20,000 nucleotides of DNA from IMG/VR virus record IMGVR_UViG_3300037502_002629; one strand, 5' to 3'. The DNA comes from an uncultured virus (IMG/VR IMGVR_UViG_3300037502_002629). Taxonomy: Duplodnaviria; Heunggongvirae; Uroviricota; Caudoviricetes. This document shows positions 2,432-8,220 of the stretch, piece by piece. Positions within the stretch are counted from its first letter, which is position 1. Each line of letters opens with the position of its first letter. Below the pieces are notes generated by a model. That model did not search any database and was not told where the DNA came from. It was given only the letters and a program-made list of their open reading frames with translations. Both the position numbers and the translations under genes were made by a program.

Positions 2432-3453
2432 TCTTCTAAGAAATGTCTAAGGTCATCTGCTTTCATCTCATCAAAGTGTTCTTCGTCCTCATCTTCTGTT
2501 TCTTCTTCTTCGACTACTATTTCCTCTTCTTCTTCATCTTCATAATCATCTTCGGTTATTTCATCAAAGAATTCATCGTCATCTGGAATCTTATCAACAT
2601 TAGCAGTCATACTTACACTGTGGTCTTCTTCTGTAATATAGTTATAATGATCCCAGCTAAATGAATTTGTAGTAAGGGTCATGTCCCCGCGACCACCTTC
2701 ATTGTTGTAGAATCCACATTCTTTACTATCAATAAGGCGCCATATAAGTGAATCTAGTTCCCCAGATATTCTAATAGAATGGCGGTCACCGCTTTCTGTT
2801 TTTACGTAAACATCATCAGTACCACCAGAATCACCACTGCCACTATAGCTAATTTCAACACTTTTTATACCACTTGGTATTTCCTCAGCATAATGACTCT
2901 CCTCGAAAAAATGTTTCCACAGATTAAATACCACTTCATCTAATTTTTCACTCATTTTTTCTGTATAAGGATTGTGATATACAGGTTTTGGCGGTGTAAT
3001 TGGTACTTCAACAGTTACAGCGTCAAGTGCTTCTTTAATTATAGAATCCACAGCATCAAAATAAAATAACCCTATCCAATTGCTATATATTAGATCAAAT
3101 GACATAGTACCTCGTTCTTCCTGATTATCTATTCTGAACAAAGTGAAACAGCCTTTCTCCATATCAATTTCGAAGTGTTGGTCACCCTTCTGCTCTGCAA
3201 TAGGAATTTCAATAAACTTGCGCGCATTTGCGATAGAGTGAAACACATCACCTATCGTATCATAAGTTCTTTTCTTAGATCCTATTGAAAGATCTGGATT
3301 GCGCTCTTTAAATCTGGCAAATGCATCTTTATAACGTACAATTTCATTAATAAATTCCTGAGCAGAAGCTATTTCGTTAACTTCTCTTGATGGTAATGAA
3401 CCCAGCACAGTTAATCCATTTGGTAGTATAATATTCAGAGTTCTTGATAACAT
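2428..3453 (-). CDS. protein with C-terminal DUF6878-like domain and acidic tail
   Basis: ISYSGSGDSG..GFYNNEGGRGDM motifs; adjacent to the DUF6915-like gene; D/E-rich tail. Confidence 0.65.
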   Translation of the reverse strand: MLSRTLNIILPNGLTVLGSLPSREVNEIASAQEFINEIVRYKDAFARFKERNPDLSIGSKKRTYDTIGDVFHSIANARKFIEIPIAEQKGDQHFEIDMEKGCFTLFRIDNQEERGTMSFDLIYSNWIGLFYFDAVDSIIKEALDAVTVEVPITPPKPVYHNPYTEKMSEKLDEVVFNLWKHFFEESHYAEEIPSGIKSVEISYSGSGDSGGTDDVYVKTESGDRHSIRISGELDSLIWRLIDSKECGFYNNEGGRGDMTLTTNSFSWDHYNYITEEDHSVSMTANVDKIPDDDEFFDEITEDDYEDEEEEEIVVEEEETEDEDEEHFDEMKADDLRHFLED

Positions 3454-3827
3454 TATTCTGCTAGTTTAATTGTTTGTAATTCTCCTGTTCTGATTGCTGC
3501 TTCCAGCTCCATCCAATAATTGACAATATTACCTCCTGCCAATACCAATATAGTTTTATAACCTCGTTTTTTTGTGCCCATTTGTCTAATAGACCTGATC
3601 CTCATTTTATAATCAGACCAACCTGATGGTAACTTAATTGATTCAACTATACCTGGTGCTGTGTAAATGTACACGTAACTGCCATTAATACCTGAACCAA
3701 GTCCTAATACAACATCATCACCTACTTTATAGGTAACGCCGTTACTTGCCACAATACTATCTTTCTTTTCACCCTGCGCTAATGCGCTGGTAGAGATAAT
3801 CATTAAAATAAACAGTAATTTCTTCAT
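3453..3827 (-). CDS. secreted protein with Sec signal peptide
   Basis: MKKLLFILMIISTSALA/Q signal with Gln at +1, typical of Bacteroidota. Confidence 0.75.
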   Translation of the reverse strand: MKKLLFILMIISTSALAQGEKKDSIVASNGVTYKVGDDVVLGLGSGINGSYVYIYTAPGIVESIKLPSGWSDYKMRIRSIRQMGTKKRGYKTILVLAGGNIVNYWMELEAAIRTGELQTIKLAE

Positions 3828-3869: not shown

Positions 3870-5708
3870 TTACAGTGTCACTTTTTCAGTAATCAACGTA
3901 TTGATTTTAGTACGCAGAAATTCTACAAATTGAGCAGGAAACTTTGACATATCATTCATGTGTATAACATTCTTAAACATGTCTTTGCTTCTATAACCAT
4001 CAATTGCAATTTGTATTACTTGAAAACCCATTTTTTCTACTTCATTCACCATCCTTCGTGTATGATCTATAGCATATACACCAGTATATTTATTCGCACA
4101 GGGAGAACCATCGCTAATGACAATAAATAAACCATTATTTTGTGTTTTACTACGCACACGCTTTGCTGCTGCTATAATAGCGGAACCATCTCGGTTTTCA
4201 TATTTAGCGCTGATATCTGCAAGTGCAGTTTTCTGAGGGCTTCCTGGTTCTTTATATATTTGAATTTGTGTCGAACCTGTTCCACCTGTATCATACTTCT
4301 TCATATAATCAACTTCACCATCCCAATCAGCAGTATGACCATAGATAAATAATTCTACATCTTTGACCTTTTTGAGACATTCATTAAGATAAATAGCTGC
4401 TTTGCGTGCCTGTTCAATTTTATATCCATGCATGCTACCAGATTCATCCACTAAAATAGTTACAGACAATTTATCAGTTTTTACTTGACCAATGCGTTCA
4501 TAAATAGTAGATACATGTTGTTTAGCCTCGGCTAACTTATTAGTATCTAATCTACCGCTTCGCATTGACTTTAGAATAAATTGATAATCTCTGTTTTTGC
4601 GATGTAATAAATTTGCTATAACATTTGCTTTAGTAAGATCTATTTCATTAAGCAGACTGTTATACTTATCAGCACTGTGTTTACTGTCAGCAACATTTAA
4701 ATAATCAATTTTACTACCGCTTACTTTAATATCAATCTCTTCTTTTTCATCGAGTTCTTTCATGAAACTAGCAAAAGAGCCATCCTCTTTTTTGTCAGAT
4801 TCTTCCATTTGTTCCATTAGCTTTTTAGCAAAATCGCTCAAGGAATCTTTTACAGATTTGCTCAATGATGTTTTTTTCTCAGATGTATCCTCGTCGGTTT
4901 TAGACTCATCACCAGAGCTTTCATCACCGTCTCCATCACCATCTTTATCACTATCTGAATCAGCACTACCACTTTTTTCTGACTTGCTTTTTTCTTGTTC
5001 TGTTACAAATTCAGAAATAATGTTACTGATTTTTTTACTTAGCTTATCACAATCTTCTATATCATCAGGTATACCATTATACTTTAATATTTGCGATTTG
5101 ATTTTATCAATTGGAATTTGAAACTTGCTAAGTTCTTCTTCTGTAATTTGGTCTGGATATCTAATAATGCGATCAAAGAGATCAAGCAGATGCTCATAGT
5201 CATTACTTGCTACTGGTCGCGTCTCGTATTTATGATCTTTGTATTTTTTTATAAACTTCAAATACCCTGGAGTATGCTGAGCCATTCTTGTATTTATCCG
5301 TTCTTGGTTCAGAGCATTAAATACAAATGATTTTAACGAAGACCGAACTTTGCTATTTTTTATTCTTAGGCGTTCATCTTTATCTAAATGCACAAGACTC
5401 GCAATATTTTGTAAAGACGCGCCTATAAAAACGTCAATATTGGTATCATTCAGCAATTTAGTTGGAATAAATGCTTTATCTACACTATTAGCATTACCTG
5501 CAAATTCTTTACGACTAACGCCCATTACTTTTGACATCACCGATAATAAACTTGCAGCTTCTTCCATGTTTATTTTTTTACTTCCACCAAGAAAGAAATC
5601 GCTGTAATTTGCATAACCTTTATCCCAACTATAAGCTCGTTTGCTGGGATCATAATGAGTATAGCCATAATCGGCATCTCTGCTAAACCAATCTCTAAAA
5701 TATGTCAT
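3870..5708 (-). CDS. vWA-domain protein (CobT/NorD-like MoxR partner)
   Basis: SGRLD..L motif, MIDAS ILVDESGSM, ENRDG, IVISDGSP; acidic/Ser-rich central linker; downstream of the AAA+ gene. Confidence 0.88.
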   Translation of the reverse strand: MTYFRDWFSRDADYGYTHYDPSKRAYSWDKGYANYSDFFLGGSKKINMEEAASLLSVMSKVMGVSRKEFAGNANSVDKAFIPTKLLNDTNIDVFIGASLQNIASLVHLDKDERLRIKNSKVRSSLKSFVFNALNQERINTRMAQHTPGYLKFIKKYKDHKYETRPVASNDYEHLLDLFDRIIRYPDQITEEELSKFQIPIDKIKSQILKYNGIPDDIEDCDKLSKKISNIISEFVTEQEKSKSEKSGSADSDSDKDGDGDGDESSGDESKTDEDTSEKKTSLSKSVKDSLSDFAKKLMEQMEESDKKEDGSFASFMKELDEKEEIDIKVSGSKIDYLNVADSKHSADKYNSLLNEIDLTKANVIANLLHRKNRDYQFILKSMRSGRLDTNKLAEAKQHVSTIYERIGQVKTDKLSVTILVDESGSMHGYKIEQARKAAIYLNECLKKVKDVELFIYGHTADWDGEVDYMKKYDTGGTGSTQIQIYKEPGSPQKTALADISAKYENRDGSAIIAAAKRVRSKTQNNGLFIVISDGSPCANKYTGVYAIDHTRRMVNEVEKMGFQVIQIAIDGYRSKDMFKNVIHMNDMSKFPAQFVEFLRTKINTLITEKVTL

Positions 5709-5712
5709 TTTG

Positions 5713-5898
5713 TTATTTTTTAAATGGTTTATCTAATTCTTTCCTATATTCATCTATATCAGTGAAAACAGGAGGAACTTTCCCGCACATAGCACACCCC
5801 ATCTCTCCATGAGAGACAGGGTATACTACTGGTGAATACTGTTCGTTTTTGCAATAAATGCATTTAGTTTGCATTATTACTTTTGCCGTTTCAGTCAT
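5713..5898 (-). CDS. small Zn-ribbon protein
   Basis: CIYC..CAMC; TAATG coupling to the AAA gene stop. Confidence 0.65.
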   Translation of the reverse strand: MTETAKVIMQTKCIYCKNEQYSPVVYPVSHGEMGCAMCGKVPPVFTDIDEYRKELDKPFKK

Positions 5899-6392
5899 TA
5901 GTTCGCCGCAATAATTGATTTTACTTTACTACGTTCTGATACACCAGAGGCATCATCAAATAGGGGCAGTATAACTTTCATTAATGCACCTACAGTATCA
6001 AAGCCATCTTTAATCAAACTCGCAGCAAGCAGGGTGTGACGTACTGATATTACATTACTCAGTTCCTGCTCTTTGAATTGATTACGAATTGTAGAAGATA
6101 CTTTAACAATCGCCTTAGCTGTTTTAGTGTCAATACCAGTGCGAATTGTTAAGATGTTTTCTTCTGCTTGCTCAGAGGGATAGCTCAATTCCACAGGGAA
6201 GAAACGATCTAACAAAGCGCGGTCAATCTGAGTAGTACCACTATACTCCGCACCTAAGTTAGCAGTGGCAAAGAATACACATTTCTCATTGACGGGGATA
6301 CTACGCAGTGCATCACCGCCTGCAATGTCTACAGGAAGATATCTACGTTTGTCAAGACATGGGAACAATATGTTTGCGGCTGAAATCGGGGC
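5898..6392 (-). CDS. MoxR/CbbQ-type AAA+ ATPase, exon 2 (164 aa)
   Basis: APISAANILFPCLD..FFATAN (sensor 1)..DRALLDRF (Arg finger)..ISVRHTL; continues in frame from exon 1 LLDELNR. Confidence 0.9.
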   Translation of the reverse strand, partial: APISAANILFPCLDKRRYLPVDIAGGDALRSIPVNEKCVFFATANLGAEYSGTTQIDRALLDRFFPVELSYPSEQAEENILTIRTGIDTKTAKAIVKVSSTIRNQFKEQELSNVISVRHTLLAASLIKDGFDTVGALMKVILPLFDDASGVSERSKVKSIIAAN

Positions 6393-6448
6393 CAAATATG
6401 TTATCATAGAAGCTCTTTATCTTCTATTTCTGTATATTACTATACAGT

Positions 6449-7372
6449 TCAGACTATATCATCATCATGATTATTAATCATGAGCAGGGCACTCGTGTTA
6501 GCATTACTGTCCTCAACATTACTTGGTAGGACTCGGCTATTAGTCGTTGAACCTTCAAGAGCATTACTGCTCAAGCTTGGCTGCTGATTGTCCTCTGAGC
6601 CATCAGTAGGAGTTTCCAGCAATTCACCCTGTTTTACAATCGCTATCCCCTTCTTAAATCTGTATTTACCTTTAACTTTCTTACCTATACCTCTACAAAC
6701 ACTTGAAATACATGCACACAAACTATCAAAATTATCTCCTTCTTCATAAATGCTTCTAGCTGCAGTAGCTATATTTTTAAATTCTGAAATATTACCTTCA
6801 GAATCAATCATAGTTACTCCAACCCATTTCCACTTAGATCTTTGTAAATCATAAGTGACTTCAGCATTTTTGTTGTAGCTCCACAAATAACCACCCGCAG
6901 ATTTAAGTTTACCATTACAAACTTGTATAATGGAACTTGCTGCTATGTGAGTCTGTCGTTGAGCTTCTTTTGTAGAAGGATAATTACTTACTAGTTTACC
7001 ATCAAGTCCAAACTGGTATACAGTTTTACTGTTAGGTATAGAATTATTTTGTGTTACAGGATCCAGTTTATTATTCAATACTGGCCCTAACAACTCAATC
7101 CAATTTTTTTCTAGTTCAAGTAATTTTTCTCTTGATATGTCTTTTTCAAGATGCAGTACAGAATAATGACACTTTTCTGAACCGTGTTTGTTGAATGTGT
7201 GCTGCATCCTAGAATTTTCATGACTATTCTTTATCAATTTGTTTTTATGTTCCCTAAGTCTGTTTTGAATATTTACAGAACTTCCTACATAATTTAATTC
7301 ATTGATTTTGAGATAGTAGATTCCAGGATACTTACTTATTACATCAAGTGATGTTTGAAATAGAGGTGTCAT
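6449..7372 (-). CDS. intron-encoded GIY-YIG homing endonuclease with NUMOD1-type DNA-binding repeats
   Basis: GIYYLKINELNYVGSS..R..EH..ELEKNWI; VYQFGLDGKLVSNYPSTKEA..I..VCNGK..SAGGYLW. Confidence 0.9.
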   Translation of the reverse strand: MTPLFQTSLDVISKYPGIYYLKINELNYVGSSVNIQNRLREHKNKLIKNSHENSRMQHTFNKHGSEKCHYSVLHLEKDISREKLLELEKNWIELLGPVLNNKLDPVTQNNSIPNSKTVYQFGLDGKLVSNYPSTKEAQRQTHIAASSIIQVCNGKLKSAGGYLWSYNKNAEVTYDLQRSKWKWVGVTMIDSEGNISEFKNIATAARSIYEEGDNFDSLCACISSVCRGIGKKVKGKYRFKKGIAIVKQGELLETPTDGSEDNQQPSLSSNALEGSTTNSRVLPSNVEDSNANTSALLMINNHDDDIV

Positions 7373-7399
7373 TGTAATTAGTATTAGATGATTTTAATA

Positions 7400-7431
7400 C
7401 AAATATACAATTATTTGTTAAGATAAACAAA
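7400..7431 (-). promoter_or_regulatory. Bacteroidota primary-sigma promoter for the endonuclease
   Basis: TTTG (7431-7428)-N20-TATATTTG (7407-7400), about 28 nt upstream of ATG 7372. Confidence 0.7.
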
Positions 7432-7452
7432 TACTTAAGATTTTATTTATTA

Positions 7453-8220
7453 ACGATTCAACTCGTCAAGAAGTACGATACCATCTTGTTGCACATGGCC
7501 TACAAATGGAGCATAATCGAACTCTGAATGACCGTCTTTATTCAACCTGTGCACACCTAACAATGCAGATTGAGCATCTTGCACAGTACCCATATCCTGT
7601 ATACTCAAGGGTTTTTCCATGGCACGCGCAATGTGTGATACCAGCTCTGTCTTGCCTGAGCCTGTAGGTCCTACCAACAACGTATTTTCACCACGCATGA
7701 TGTTACGTATTAACAAATACCATACATCTGCATCAATGTGAAAACCTGTGCTTTGCTCATCTGGACAAGGGTACAATCGCATAATACGATCTCTTAGTGT
7801 ACCTGTTTCATCTTCGGCATAAGCTTTACATTTAGCTTCCACATCTAACAAGTAACCCATCTCGACCCACTTAGCTGCATATTCGAGGGCTTTTTCGCGC
7901 TTAATCTCATTAGACATAAGCATCCACTCAAACGTGTAGTTAACATCTTCGTGTGTGCAGGATATTTCACCTACAGTATTCCCATATACAGTTTCTTCGT
8001 AAATGACAGGACGCGGTGCCCCTATAATCTTAGAAACTACTTCACCCCAAAGGATTTCACTAACAATAAACACTGTCCCTATCGGGAATTTTGTCAATAT
8101 TTTAGAGTCACCTGTAAACGTGGTGCTGGATAAATCAATTGCCTTTGGTTTATTAGGCTGGTTGTCAACAAATTCAATGTTAAATTGTGTACCTCTGAGG
8201 GCGGTTTTAATTAAATACAT
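7453..8220 (-). CDS. MoxR/CbbQ-type AAA+ ATPase, exon 1 (256 aa; spliced product 420 aa)
   Basis: Walker A LVGPTGSGKT; Walker B IVLLDELNR ends exactly at the intron. Confidence 0.9.

Follow-up and report, generated by a model that had tools for sequence, protein, structure and literature searches.

We analyzed a 20,000-nucleotide stretch of DNA (the window) from an uncultured freshwater phage, and found that its CobS/MoxR-type ATPase gene is very probably interrupted by a mobile group I intron, which carries a gene for a GIY-YIG endonuclease and is predicted to splice and to home. Comparison of aligned alleles demonstrated the intron borders, the ribozyme fold, the P1 and P10 pairings, and a presence/absence polymorphism at the insertion site. 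The intron is an unambiguous, if unremarkable, case of a familiar class of mobile elements, located in a gene that we did not find reported as a host: our search of the full-text literature found no paper reporting a CobS/MoxR-type ATPase as the host of a group I intron.

The interrupted ATPase gene and its ribozyme

The first exon of the ATPase gene encodes the Walker A (GPTGSGKT) and Walker B (LLDE) motifs, matches the Pfam family AAA_5 (37.1 bits, cut-off 22), and ends in LLDELNR, with a T/U as its last base (position 7453), and the second exon matches the family CbbQ_C (40.3 bits, cut-off 20.6). The PHROG 249 profile is divided over the two exons, with exon 1 covering profile positions 117-203 and exon 2 covering positions 213-334. 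The insertion point lies two codons past Walker B, inside the conserved DELNRAP motif. The gene of the vWA partner contains no interruption in the window, which carries one intron. Our assignment of the host gene to the CobS/MoxR class is based on three features, i.e., an AAA_5 P-loop, a CbbQ_C C-terminal domain, and an adjacent vWA partner, all of which were found.

The initial annotation of this region described a MoxR/CbbQ AAA+ ATPase cut just after Walker B, and both the Pfam domains and the existence of an intronless allele bear this out. This allele, which the initial annotation had proposed to look for, was found as the protein P0002, an uninterrupted 420-aa homologue that is 98% identical, reads LLDELNRAPISAANILF, and is collinear across the junction with no gap. 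Removal of positions 6393-7452 joins LLDELNR to APISAANILF in frame and gives a protein of 256 + 164 = 420 aa, matching P0002 and agreeing with the initial annotation, all of whose coordinates we confirmed. At the predicted ligated-exon junction, ...UUGAAUCGU is followed directly by GCCCCGAUU... (AAUCGU joined to GCCCCG).

The intron opens with two in-frame UAA codons (7452..7447) and its last base is a G at position 6393, so that the U and G splice boundaries proposed earlier are those that we observe. A search with group I intron models, also proposed earlier as a check, returned a match to Rfam RF00028 (Intron_gpI) at 6719..6430 on the minus strand, which scored 87.3 bits against a gathering score of 50 (E 2.2e-21) and covers the model in full (positions 1-253 of 253). 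No other Rfam match occurs in the 20-kb window. The core fold was derived using RNAalifold on four alleles, and its pairing was scored in a 65-sequence family alignment. In this alignment 85.6% of cells are paired, compared to 65.0% in shuffles (0 of 500 shuffles were as high), the covariation score is 0.470 compared to 0.149 in shuffles, slid controls gave 31-46%, and 56 of 67 pairs show changes on both sides. The core helices P3 to P9.1 are thus backed by covariation in the aligned sequences, and this includes P3, P7, and P9, which had been recognized before. P3 encloses P4, P5, P5a, P6, P6a, the 5′ strand of P7, and P7.1. The weakest helices in the family alignment are P5a, P7.1a, and P8 (54-68% paired), and we tentatively attribute this low pairing to misalignment of variable-length hairpins by MAFFT; P8 is short in the window, and is 51 nt longer in the alleles L006 and L012. 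A conserved tail, GAUAACA...G, comes after P9.1.

The description of this intron as IA2-like, with extra stems between P7 and P3′, was only partly confirmed. An extra element is present between P7 and P3′, but it is one long, interrupted, covarying hairpin (P7.1/P7.1a) and not two separate hairpins, and the intron is without P2, with GUAAAA alone separating the guide sequence from P3. Subgroup IA2 (the T4 td/nrdB/sunY type) was reportedly characterized by Michel and Westhof in 1990 by two extra hairpins, P7.1 and P7.2, in this position. We class the intron as probably of subgroup IA type, with IA2 as a candidate assignment.

Table 1. Positions of the exons, the intron, its helices and guide strands, and neighboring coding sequences in the window
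Feature	Position	Strand	Details and basis
Exon 1 of CobS/MoxR-type AAA+ ATPase	8220..7453	minus	256 aa; ORF list, sequence
Exon 2 of ATPase	6392..5901	minus	164 aa, APISAANILF...IIAAN; stop codon 5900..5898
Downstream partner, CobT-like vWA protein	3870..5708	minus	612 aa; Pfam CobT_C 55.3 bits (cut-off 21); PHROG 17276 (aerobic cobaltochelatase CobT subunit)
Group I intron	7452..6393	minus	1060 nt; frame restored on removal; Rfam; alignment with 341-nt ORF-less and 1109/1055-nt ORF-bearing relatives
Putative homing-endonuclease ORF, inside P1 loop	7372..6449	minus	307 aa + stop; Pfam, structure-entry alignment
Read-through tail of ORF, last ~64 codons	roughly 6643..6452	minus	runs across ribozyme core to UGA 6451..6449 in J8/7
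Internal guide sequence, P1 strand GCGAUU	6638..6643	minus	pairs with exon-1 end AAUCGU (7458..7453), U.G wobble at splice site
Internal guide sequence, P10 strand GGGGAU	6645..6650	minus	pairs with exon-2 start GCCCC (6392..6388)
P3	6631..6625 / 6491..6485	minus	98.0% of cells paired, 65-sequence alignment
P4	6621..6616 / 6587..6582	minus	91.5% paired
P5	6611..6608 / 6594..6591	minus	RNAalifold, 4 alleles
P5a	6606..6603 / 6598..6595	minus	RNAalifold, 4 alleles
P6	6581..6579 / 6553..6551	minus	96.4% paired
P6a	6572..6568 / 6563..6559	minus	94.6% paired
P7 pseudoknot helix, GACUA / UAGUC	6545..6541 / 6456..6452	minus	100% paired; 3 of 5 pairs invariant, 65 sequences
P7.1	6539..6536 / 6502..6499	minus	96.4% paired; both-side changes in 4 of 4 pairs
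P7.1a	6532..6528 / 6513..6509 and 6525..6523 / 6516..6514	minus	
P8 hairpin	6483..6475 / 6473..6465	minus	Rfam, allele alignment; 53.8% paired in MAFFT alignment
P9	6447..6441 / 6436..6430	minus	base 98.0% paired, many compensatory changes
P9.1	6427..6421 / 6412..6406	minus	98.0% paired, many compensatory changes

Guide sequence and endonuclease gene

Approximately 810 nt separate the 5′ splice site from the downstream guide sequence, which places the endonuclease ORF in the P1 loop. In the window, P1 is a perfect 6-bp helix including the U.G wobble, and compensatory changes are seen in other alleles, where the exon sequence AACCGU of L012 occurs with GCGGUU, and the exon sequence GAGUCGU of L072 and L359 occurs with GCGUCUC. 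P10 likewise shows compensatory changes, with GCUCCA paired with UGGAGU in L072 and GCACCA paired with UGGUGU in L359, and with the third base of the Ala codon pairing C-G, U-A, and A-U across alleles; in addition, the GGGG-CCCC pairing is recovered when the L006 intron, which is ORF-less, is folded by free energy. These helices are not free of mismatches: P1 of both L072 and L359 contains one U.U mismatch, and in P10 of the window the G-C pairs number only 3-4, and the register fitting L072 and L359 includes one C.A mismatch.

A GIY-YIG protein had been noted in the intron previously, and our analysis of the ORF substantiates this, with a GIY-YIG catalytic domain (PF01541) at residues 17-97 (38.2 bits, cut-off 22.6) and a DNA-binding module NUMOD1 at residues 116-149 (24.9 bits, cut-off 22.8). 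In an alignment to the I-TevI catalytic domain of entries 1MK0/1LN0 (E about 1e-6), the GIY, YVG, Arg, and Glu residues are conserved, and the query has R and E where 1MK0/1LN0 bear Ala substitutions. Codon comparison demonstrates an intact endonuclease gene under purifying selection, with 66 synonymous and 56 non-synonymous codon differences from L012 over the 242 codons of the ORF body. In the tail of the ORF there are 1 synonymous and 8 non-synonymous differences from L012, and 5 synonymous and 16 non-synonymous differences from L006, several of the tail differences being paired changes in P6a that compensate each other at the RNA level. This tail, in which we see no constraint at the protein level, looks like untended read-through. 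In L072 and L359 the ORF stops at a UAG within the guide sequence, and the enzyme therefore evidently works without the tail. In the window lineage, this ancestral UAG has been removed by a frame change, so that the ORF now continues through P3-P8 to the UGA in J8/7. Translation of the ORF through the catalytic core should hinder folding of the ribozyme, unless this translation is delayed or rare.

A hairpin hiding the start of the endonuclease gene was considered and rejected. When the 5′ part of the P1 loop is folded, the nucleotides immediately preceding the AUG are paired, with a z of -1.66 and 11 of 200 shuffles equally good, i.e., the fold is indistinguishable from shuffles, and the idea of I-TevI-style control was dropped for this reason. 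Our literature search for ORFs in the P1 loop found no phage intron with an ORF in L1, a result that does not imply novelty of the arrangement. The nuclear PpLSU3 intron, which encodes I-PpoI, has its ORF in P1.

Alleles, predicted mechanism and alternative readings

Among the best 120 matches, 11 of the 119 other protein clusters have an intron at the same site, with lengths of 256-269 aa and ends at ...DE[LI][NS]R. Of the viral-contig loci, 5 of 72 contain an intron at this site and 67 of 72 are uninterrupted there. We distinguish three forms of intron alleles, i.e., an ORF-less form of 341 nt (L006/7/8) and forms of 1109 nt (L012) and 1055 nt (L072) with an endonuclease gene, and L359 is a fourth intron-bearing lineage. 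A scan of metagenomes with a back-translated junction pattern gave mostly noise, with an exon-1 match in 5 of 117 loci, and L359 as the sole new complete intron. A second intron site in the same ATPase gene family is located at Walker A, in locus L077. The marine locus L361 shows 44% exon-1 identity and a partial endonuclease match, and no Rfam or nhmmer core match was found in its available DNA.

The intron-containing allele was found across both splice sites in contigs of four lake/freshwater metagenome runs, at approximately 98-99% identity; for example, one run (X4) contains records of 1131 and 1139 nt with 17 and 12 differing letters. No contig in these four DNA runs joins exon 1 directly to exon 2, and the evidence for the intronless allele thus comes from P0002 and from more distant loci. 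One 85-nt contig of run X2, which skips 6655..7423, was rejected as a candidate for an ORF-less form, being a weak match that has just 26 letters on one flank and differs at 8 of 59 letters. Near-identical phages were not found by megablast among GenBank phages, and tblastn with exon 1 gave no more than four matches, all of them distant and partial; one is to Bacteroides phage BS162P1, where the homologue is uninterrupted. The ribozyme is a member of a widespread phage intron family. A 17-nt core motif matches at least 120 viral contigs and is too generic, so we used a 3′-domain motif instead, which is present in 95 viral contigs.

These surveys qualify the view, expressed in the initial annotation, that the host gene is unusual. 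The lack of any such host in the papers that our full-text search covered agrees with it, but the site is often occupied in metagenomes, as the counts above demonstrate, and the family has the second site in L077. The same annotation took the intron to imply that the MoxR-vWA module is conserved and important in this phage group; conservation of the module in phages is upheld by 73 related viral-contig loci. Homing endonucleases require a conserved target, not an essential one.

In the mechanism that we favor, the ribozyme would fold in the transcript, and its guide sequence would base-pair with the six terminal nucleotides of exon 1 (P1) and with the opening nucleotides of exon 2 (P10). A molecule of exogenous guanosine occupying P7 would attack after U7453, and the freed end of exon 1 would then attack after G6393, producing the message for the 420-aa ATPase. 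The two in-frame UAA codons just past the 5′ splice site would halt ribosomes arriving from exon 1, and an in-frame stop in this position is, according to PMC3984707, a noted feature of group I introns in bacteria and phages. In the manner of I-TevI, the endonuclease would cut intronless alleles in co-infecting phages, and repair would copy the intron in, i.e., homing. In vivo splicing, endonuclease activity, and the cleavage site are what we infer from these features of the DNA.

A splicing-dead relic, with the ATPase being a pseudogene or functional only as a truncated 256-aa protein, is highly unlikely. In its favor are the loss of the ancestral stop from the endonuclease ORF, which now continues across the core, and the mismatch in P10 of the window. 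However, all core helices are intact in the window and fit the family covariation, its P7 residues are the invariant residues of the family, P1 is unbroken, both exons have retained open frames and share 98% identity with the intronless protein, and the intron allele recurs at approximately 98-99% identity in four separate lake/freshwater runs. Phage genes split by mobE-type endonuclease insertions provide the model for a different reading, in which the ATPase is naturally made as two assembling polypeptides, with a free-standing GIY-YIG gene between them and no RNA splicing. This would fit two observations: gene callers list the 256-aa piece as a protein of its own in 11 further clusters of the best 120 matches, and the ORF list contains an ATG-initiated ORF (6407..5898) that spans exon 2. 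We nevertheless consider it extremely improbable, as a complete ribozyme lies between the two halves, changes in the guide sequence go along with changes at both exon ends, and the break falls within DELNRAP rather than at a domain border; moreover, the ORF-less 341-nt intron at the same site demonstrates that the interruption is independent of the endonuclease gene.

Even if the intron splices correctly, the tail of approximately 64 codons could be a functional, dual-coded part of the endonuclease, e.g., a maturase-like or regulatory extension. The window, L012, and L006 all keep the frame open across the core, including the 51-nt (17-codon) in-frame difference in P8, and in the 280-nt core stretch the two remaining frames hold 6 and 18 stops. 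We regard a functional tail as unlikely, and rejected it as the main reading, on the basis of the ORF ends at the guide-sequence UAG in L072 and L359 and of the codon differences, which are mostly non-synonymous in the tail (16:5 compared to L006, and 8:1 compared to L012) and 56 non-synonymous to 66 synonymous in the body. It is equally doubtful that translation through the core, from P3 to J8/7, is a maintained switch, in which the ribosome unfolds the ribozyme and a transcript is either spliced, giving the ATPase, or translated, giving the endonuclease. If this were the case, the core would be a dual-use stretch, both RNA and protein-coding, kept open in at least three diverged alleles and also across the 51-nt in-frame difference in P8.

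Significance and relation to known introns

With a mobile intron as the favored reading, the CobS/MoxR-type ATPase, which is one of the two parts of a phage ATPase/vWA module that is widespread, would join the genes that host mobile group I introns. Gene callers report the split ATPase of the window as a 256-aa "hypothetical protein," the endonuclease, and a 169-aa fragment, and since they also split the ATPase in the 11 other clusters among the best 120 matches, annotation of this module in aquatic phages is systematically broken. The alleles form a natural series, i.e., intronless, an ORF-less intron, an ORF ending at the guide sequence, and an ORF running through the core, that is suited to studying how endonucleases are gained and lost and how translation of the ORF conflicts with folding of the ribozyme.

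By sequence, the nearest named ribozyme identified by blastn with the core is the intron in the dUTPase gene (gp34) of crAssphage (Carjivirus communis, BK010471.1); the match covers 70% of the core (query positions 29-217) at 83.1% identity (E 6e-47). This intron is also found in a phage, and the isolated phages in which our search detected a related ATPase include a Bacteroides phage. The two differ in host gene, a dUTPase as opposed to an AAA+ ATPase, and in the family of the endonuclease, with crAssphage gp35 annotated as a "putative intron-encoded HNH endonuclease" and the window encoding a GIY-YIG protein.

The T4 td intron with I-TevI (IA2, GIY-YIG; 1MK0, 1LN0) likewise interrupts a protein-coding gene of a phage and encodes a GIY-YIG enzyme with a modular DNA-binding tail, but its host gene is thymidylate synthase rather than an ATPase, and T4 is absent from the blastn matches to the core at E ≤ 1e-5. 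The I-TevI ORF is located in the P6 region, not inside the P1 loop, and td has a P2 plus separate P7.1 and P7.2. In both the td intron and the window intron, the 5′ splice site is followed by an in-frame stop, and a conflict between translation of the ORF and the core is discussed for I-TevI (PMC3984707).

According to Nord and Sjoberg (NAR 2008, PMC2248736), the nrdF intron of the Bacillus cereus group, encoding I-BthII, resembles the window intron in being group IA, with extra P7.1 and P9.1 and a GIY-YIG enzyme, and in having a P10 formed by nucleotides adjoining P1. It is located in a ribonucleotide reductase gene on a bacterial chromosome and has its ORF in the P6.1 loop, whereas the intron described here is found in a phage and has its ORF in the P1 loop.

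Intron borders and the interrupted ATPase gene

The Rfam group I model is matched over the model's full length (87.3 bits, E 2.2e-21), and this is the sole Rfam match within the 20-kb window. An exon-1 search identified an uninterrupted ATPase homologue of 420 aa (P0002) that is 98% identical to exon 1 and whose alignment runs on as ...LLDELNRAPISAANILF..., exon 2 following directly on exon 1, and the same gapless junction is found in six further homologues (54-75% identical). Since all these proteins are collinear across the junction, the intron borders proposed in the initial annotation are exact, with U as the final base of exon 1 and G as the final base of the intron. Pfam assigns AAA_5 (37.1 bits) to exon 1 and CbbQ_C (40.3 bits) to exon 2, and a single profile, PHROG 249 (the CobS-like "porphyrin biosynthesis" family), is cut in two, with profile positions 117-203 on exon 1 and 213-334 on exon 2. 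The intron is real, and its earlier interpretation was essentially right. We also observed a Cys-rich ORF (CxxC...CxxC, zinc-ribbon-like) between the ATPase gene and the CobT-like vWA gene, the start of which overlaps the ATPase stop (TAATG), and for which a Pfam search returned no family above cut-off.

Features of the ATPase locus and of related loci
Feature	Coordinates	Strand	Remarks
Exon 1 ORF	8220..7453	-	256 aa; C-terminus ...GIVLLDELNR, directly into UAA UAA
Intron	7452..6393	-	
Intervening stretch	between both ORF pieces	-	1060 nt; holds 307-aa ORF (7372..6449)
Rfam group I match	6719..6430	-	
Guide P1 strand	6643..6638	-	GCGAUU
P9.1 stem and loop	6406-6427		
Exon 2 ORF segment	6392..5901	-	encodes APISAANILFPCLDKRRYLP...IIAAN
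Cys-rich ORF	5713-5898	-	61 aa
Downstream gene	5708..3870	-	CobT_C/vWA (Pfam)
Viral-contig loci L006, L007, L008			exon-exon gap 341 nt; no endonuclease gene
Viral-contig locus L012			exon-exon gap 1109 nt; ORF 79% identical to window's endonuclease
Viral-contig locus L072			exon-exon gap 1055 nt; ORF 51% identical to window's endonuclease
L122 cores	1548-1775, 1974-2207, 2448-2676, 2768-3000		

Ribozyme core, guide sequence and endonuclease gene

Relatives of the window's core were taken from 66 near-full-length nhmmer matches; two were removed, the first because of a long insert and the second for its deviant 3' end. The remaining 64, all non-redundant, were aligned with the core (65 sequences), and pairs were counted on a structure built from the helices of the window itself. 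Paired cells reached 85.6%, versus 65.0% in shuffles and 31-46% with partners slid, and 56 of 67 pairs showed changes on both sides; none of 500 shuffles reached any of the observed measures. P3, P4, P6, P6a, P7, the P7.1 base, the P9 base and P9.1 are each 91-100% paired, and the lower pairing of P5a, P7.1a and P8 (54-68%), which vary in length, is attributed to alignment error. The IA2-like label given earlier is tentative: an additional element separates P7 from P3' and identifies this as a subgroup-IA-like intron, but the element folds into one long hairpin, and P2 is absent. Across the 65 otherwise diverged introns there is hardly any change in the P9.1 loop GAUAAAGA or in the 3' tail GAUAACA, unlike in the P9.1 stem, which co-varies freely, and conservation of these unpaired bases suggests a tertiary contact.

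No complement of the exon-1 end occurs in the intron's first 80 nt. Such a complement lies six bases ahead of P3, where the guide forms a perfect 6-bp P1 helix (GCGAUU/AAUCGU, U.G wobble included), and one base upstream of this strand P10 is formed by GGGGAU and the first bases of exon 2 (GCCCC). In the endonuclease-bearing alleles, guide GCGGUU faces exon AACCGU in L012, and GCGUCUC faces GAGUCGU, with one U.U mismatch, in L072 and L359; P10 reads UGGAGU/GCUCCA in L072 and UGGUGU/GCACCA in L359, so that the third base of the Ala codon co-varies with the guide (C-G, U-A, A-U). These pairings put the 5' splice site and the guide about 810 nt apart and locate the endonuclease gene in the P1 loop, which is only about 30 nt long in L006.

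The ORF in this loop matches GIY-YIG (38.2 bits) and NUMOD1 (24.9 bits) in Pfam, and its N-terminal 100 residues align (E about 1e-6) to the catalytic domain of I-TevI (1MK0, 1LN0), retaining GIY, YVG and, at the positions substituted in both entries, Arg and Glu. Its first 242 codons differ from L012 by 66 synonymous and 56 non-synonymous codons, which fits purifying selection. In L072 and L359 the ORF stops at a UAG that the guide carries between its P10 and P1 strands. A shift of frame relative to these alleles puts this UAG out of frame in the window and L012, where a tail of about 64 codons (81 in L012) crosses P3-P8 and ends at the UGA that is part of the conserved J8/7 sequence AGUCUGAAC. 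The tail shows 16 non-synonymous and 5 synonymous codon differences from L006, and 8 and 1 from L012, and several changes are both halves of RNA-compensatory pairs in P6a; because of this excess and these pairs, we read the tail as untended read-through. Part of the review by Hausner et al. concerns ORFs that reach into core sequence and hence need translation control (PMC3984707).

Occupancy of the insertion site

Among the best 120 exon-1 matches, 11 clusters besides the window's own are only 256-269 aa long (43%-98% identity to the window), and all 11 stop at ...DE[LI][NS]R, one reading nine residues further, into its intron. We examined 73 related viral-contig loci, 72 with both exon matches, and in 67 of these 72 the exons abut. 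A metagenome scan added one complete, diverged allele (L359, Rfam 83.6 bits), and contigs of four lake/freshwater metagenome runs span both splice sites of the intron-bearing allele at about 98-99% identity. These comparisons indicate that the DELNR-AP site is a recurrent homing site. A marine metagenome contig (L361) carries an exon-1 homologue (44% identity) ending at the same DE..R-UAA junction, and a GIY-YIG match comes after it (residues 11-91, 53% identity); neither nhmmer nor Rfam found a ribozyme core in the contig sequence examined, and this may represent a degraded intron or another kind of ribozyme.

A different group I intron is present in L077:2373-3500 (IMGVR_UViG_3300043775_003636), where Walker A of an ATPase homologue is split (GPTG-SGKT; exon 1 ends ...LLIGPTG and the following exon starts SGKTEL), with an Rfam match of 90.9 bits at 3187-3465 and no intron at DELNR-AP. 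Homing sites in this ATPase family thus number at least two, and each of them lies at a catalytic motif.

A new host gene for a known element

Group I introns carrying GIY-YIG or HNH genes are textbook elements of phage protein-coding genes. Our full-text literature search on phage group I introns associated with MoxR or cobS found no relevant paper. The alleles form a tidy natural series in a new host gene for a known element type; the mechanism is not new.

We located the 3' domain motif, made up of the P9.1 loop and GAUAACA, in 95 viral contigs, and the ATPase is host in 5 of the 80 motif loci taken with flanks. Of these 80, 37 downstream frames, the longer non-duplicate ones, were searched against Pfam, and 19 matched a family (E <= 0.001), including minor tail/tape-measure, UDG-like, family A DNA polymerase, ThyX, DnaB-type helicase, tail tube, SU10-type capsid and dUTPase; two matches, one to ribonucleotide reductase and the other a second one to AAA_5, stayed under Pfam's own cut-off.

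L122:1548-3000 (IMGVR_UViG_3300020414_002119) holds four separate near-full-length family cores within about 1.5 kb, which implies that a gene there is divided into very short exons. In L232:1570-2846 (IMGVR_UViG_3300012983_001643), the exon downstream of a family intron matches AAA_5 weakly (20.2 bits against a cut-off of 22), and the host gene is not a homologue of the window's ATPase at this site; dynein-related AAA+ host genes may thus be of a second kind here. In freshwater/lake runs X2 and X4, summed contig depth over the P3-P6 core (window 6522-6677) is 2-7x that of the flanks (up to 41 versus about 6), and many contigs diverge on either side, so further introns with a near-identical core occur in those lake metagenomes.

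The nearest named intron by blastn is that of the crAssphage dUTPase gene (83.1% identity over 70% of the core), which carries an HNH endonuclease. Given this relative, the 95 contigs and the varied host genes, the ribozyme is nothing out of the ordinary: it belongs to a large phage intron family that has spread into many genes, accompanied by different endonucleases.
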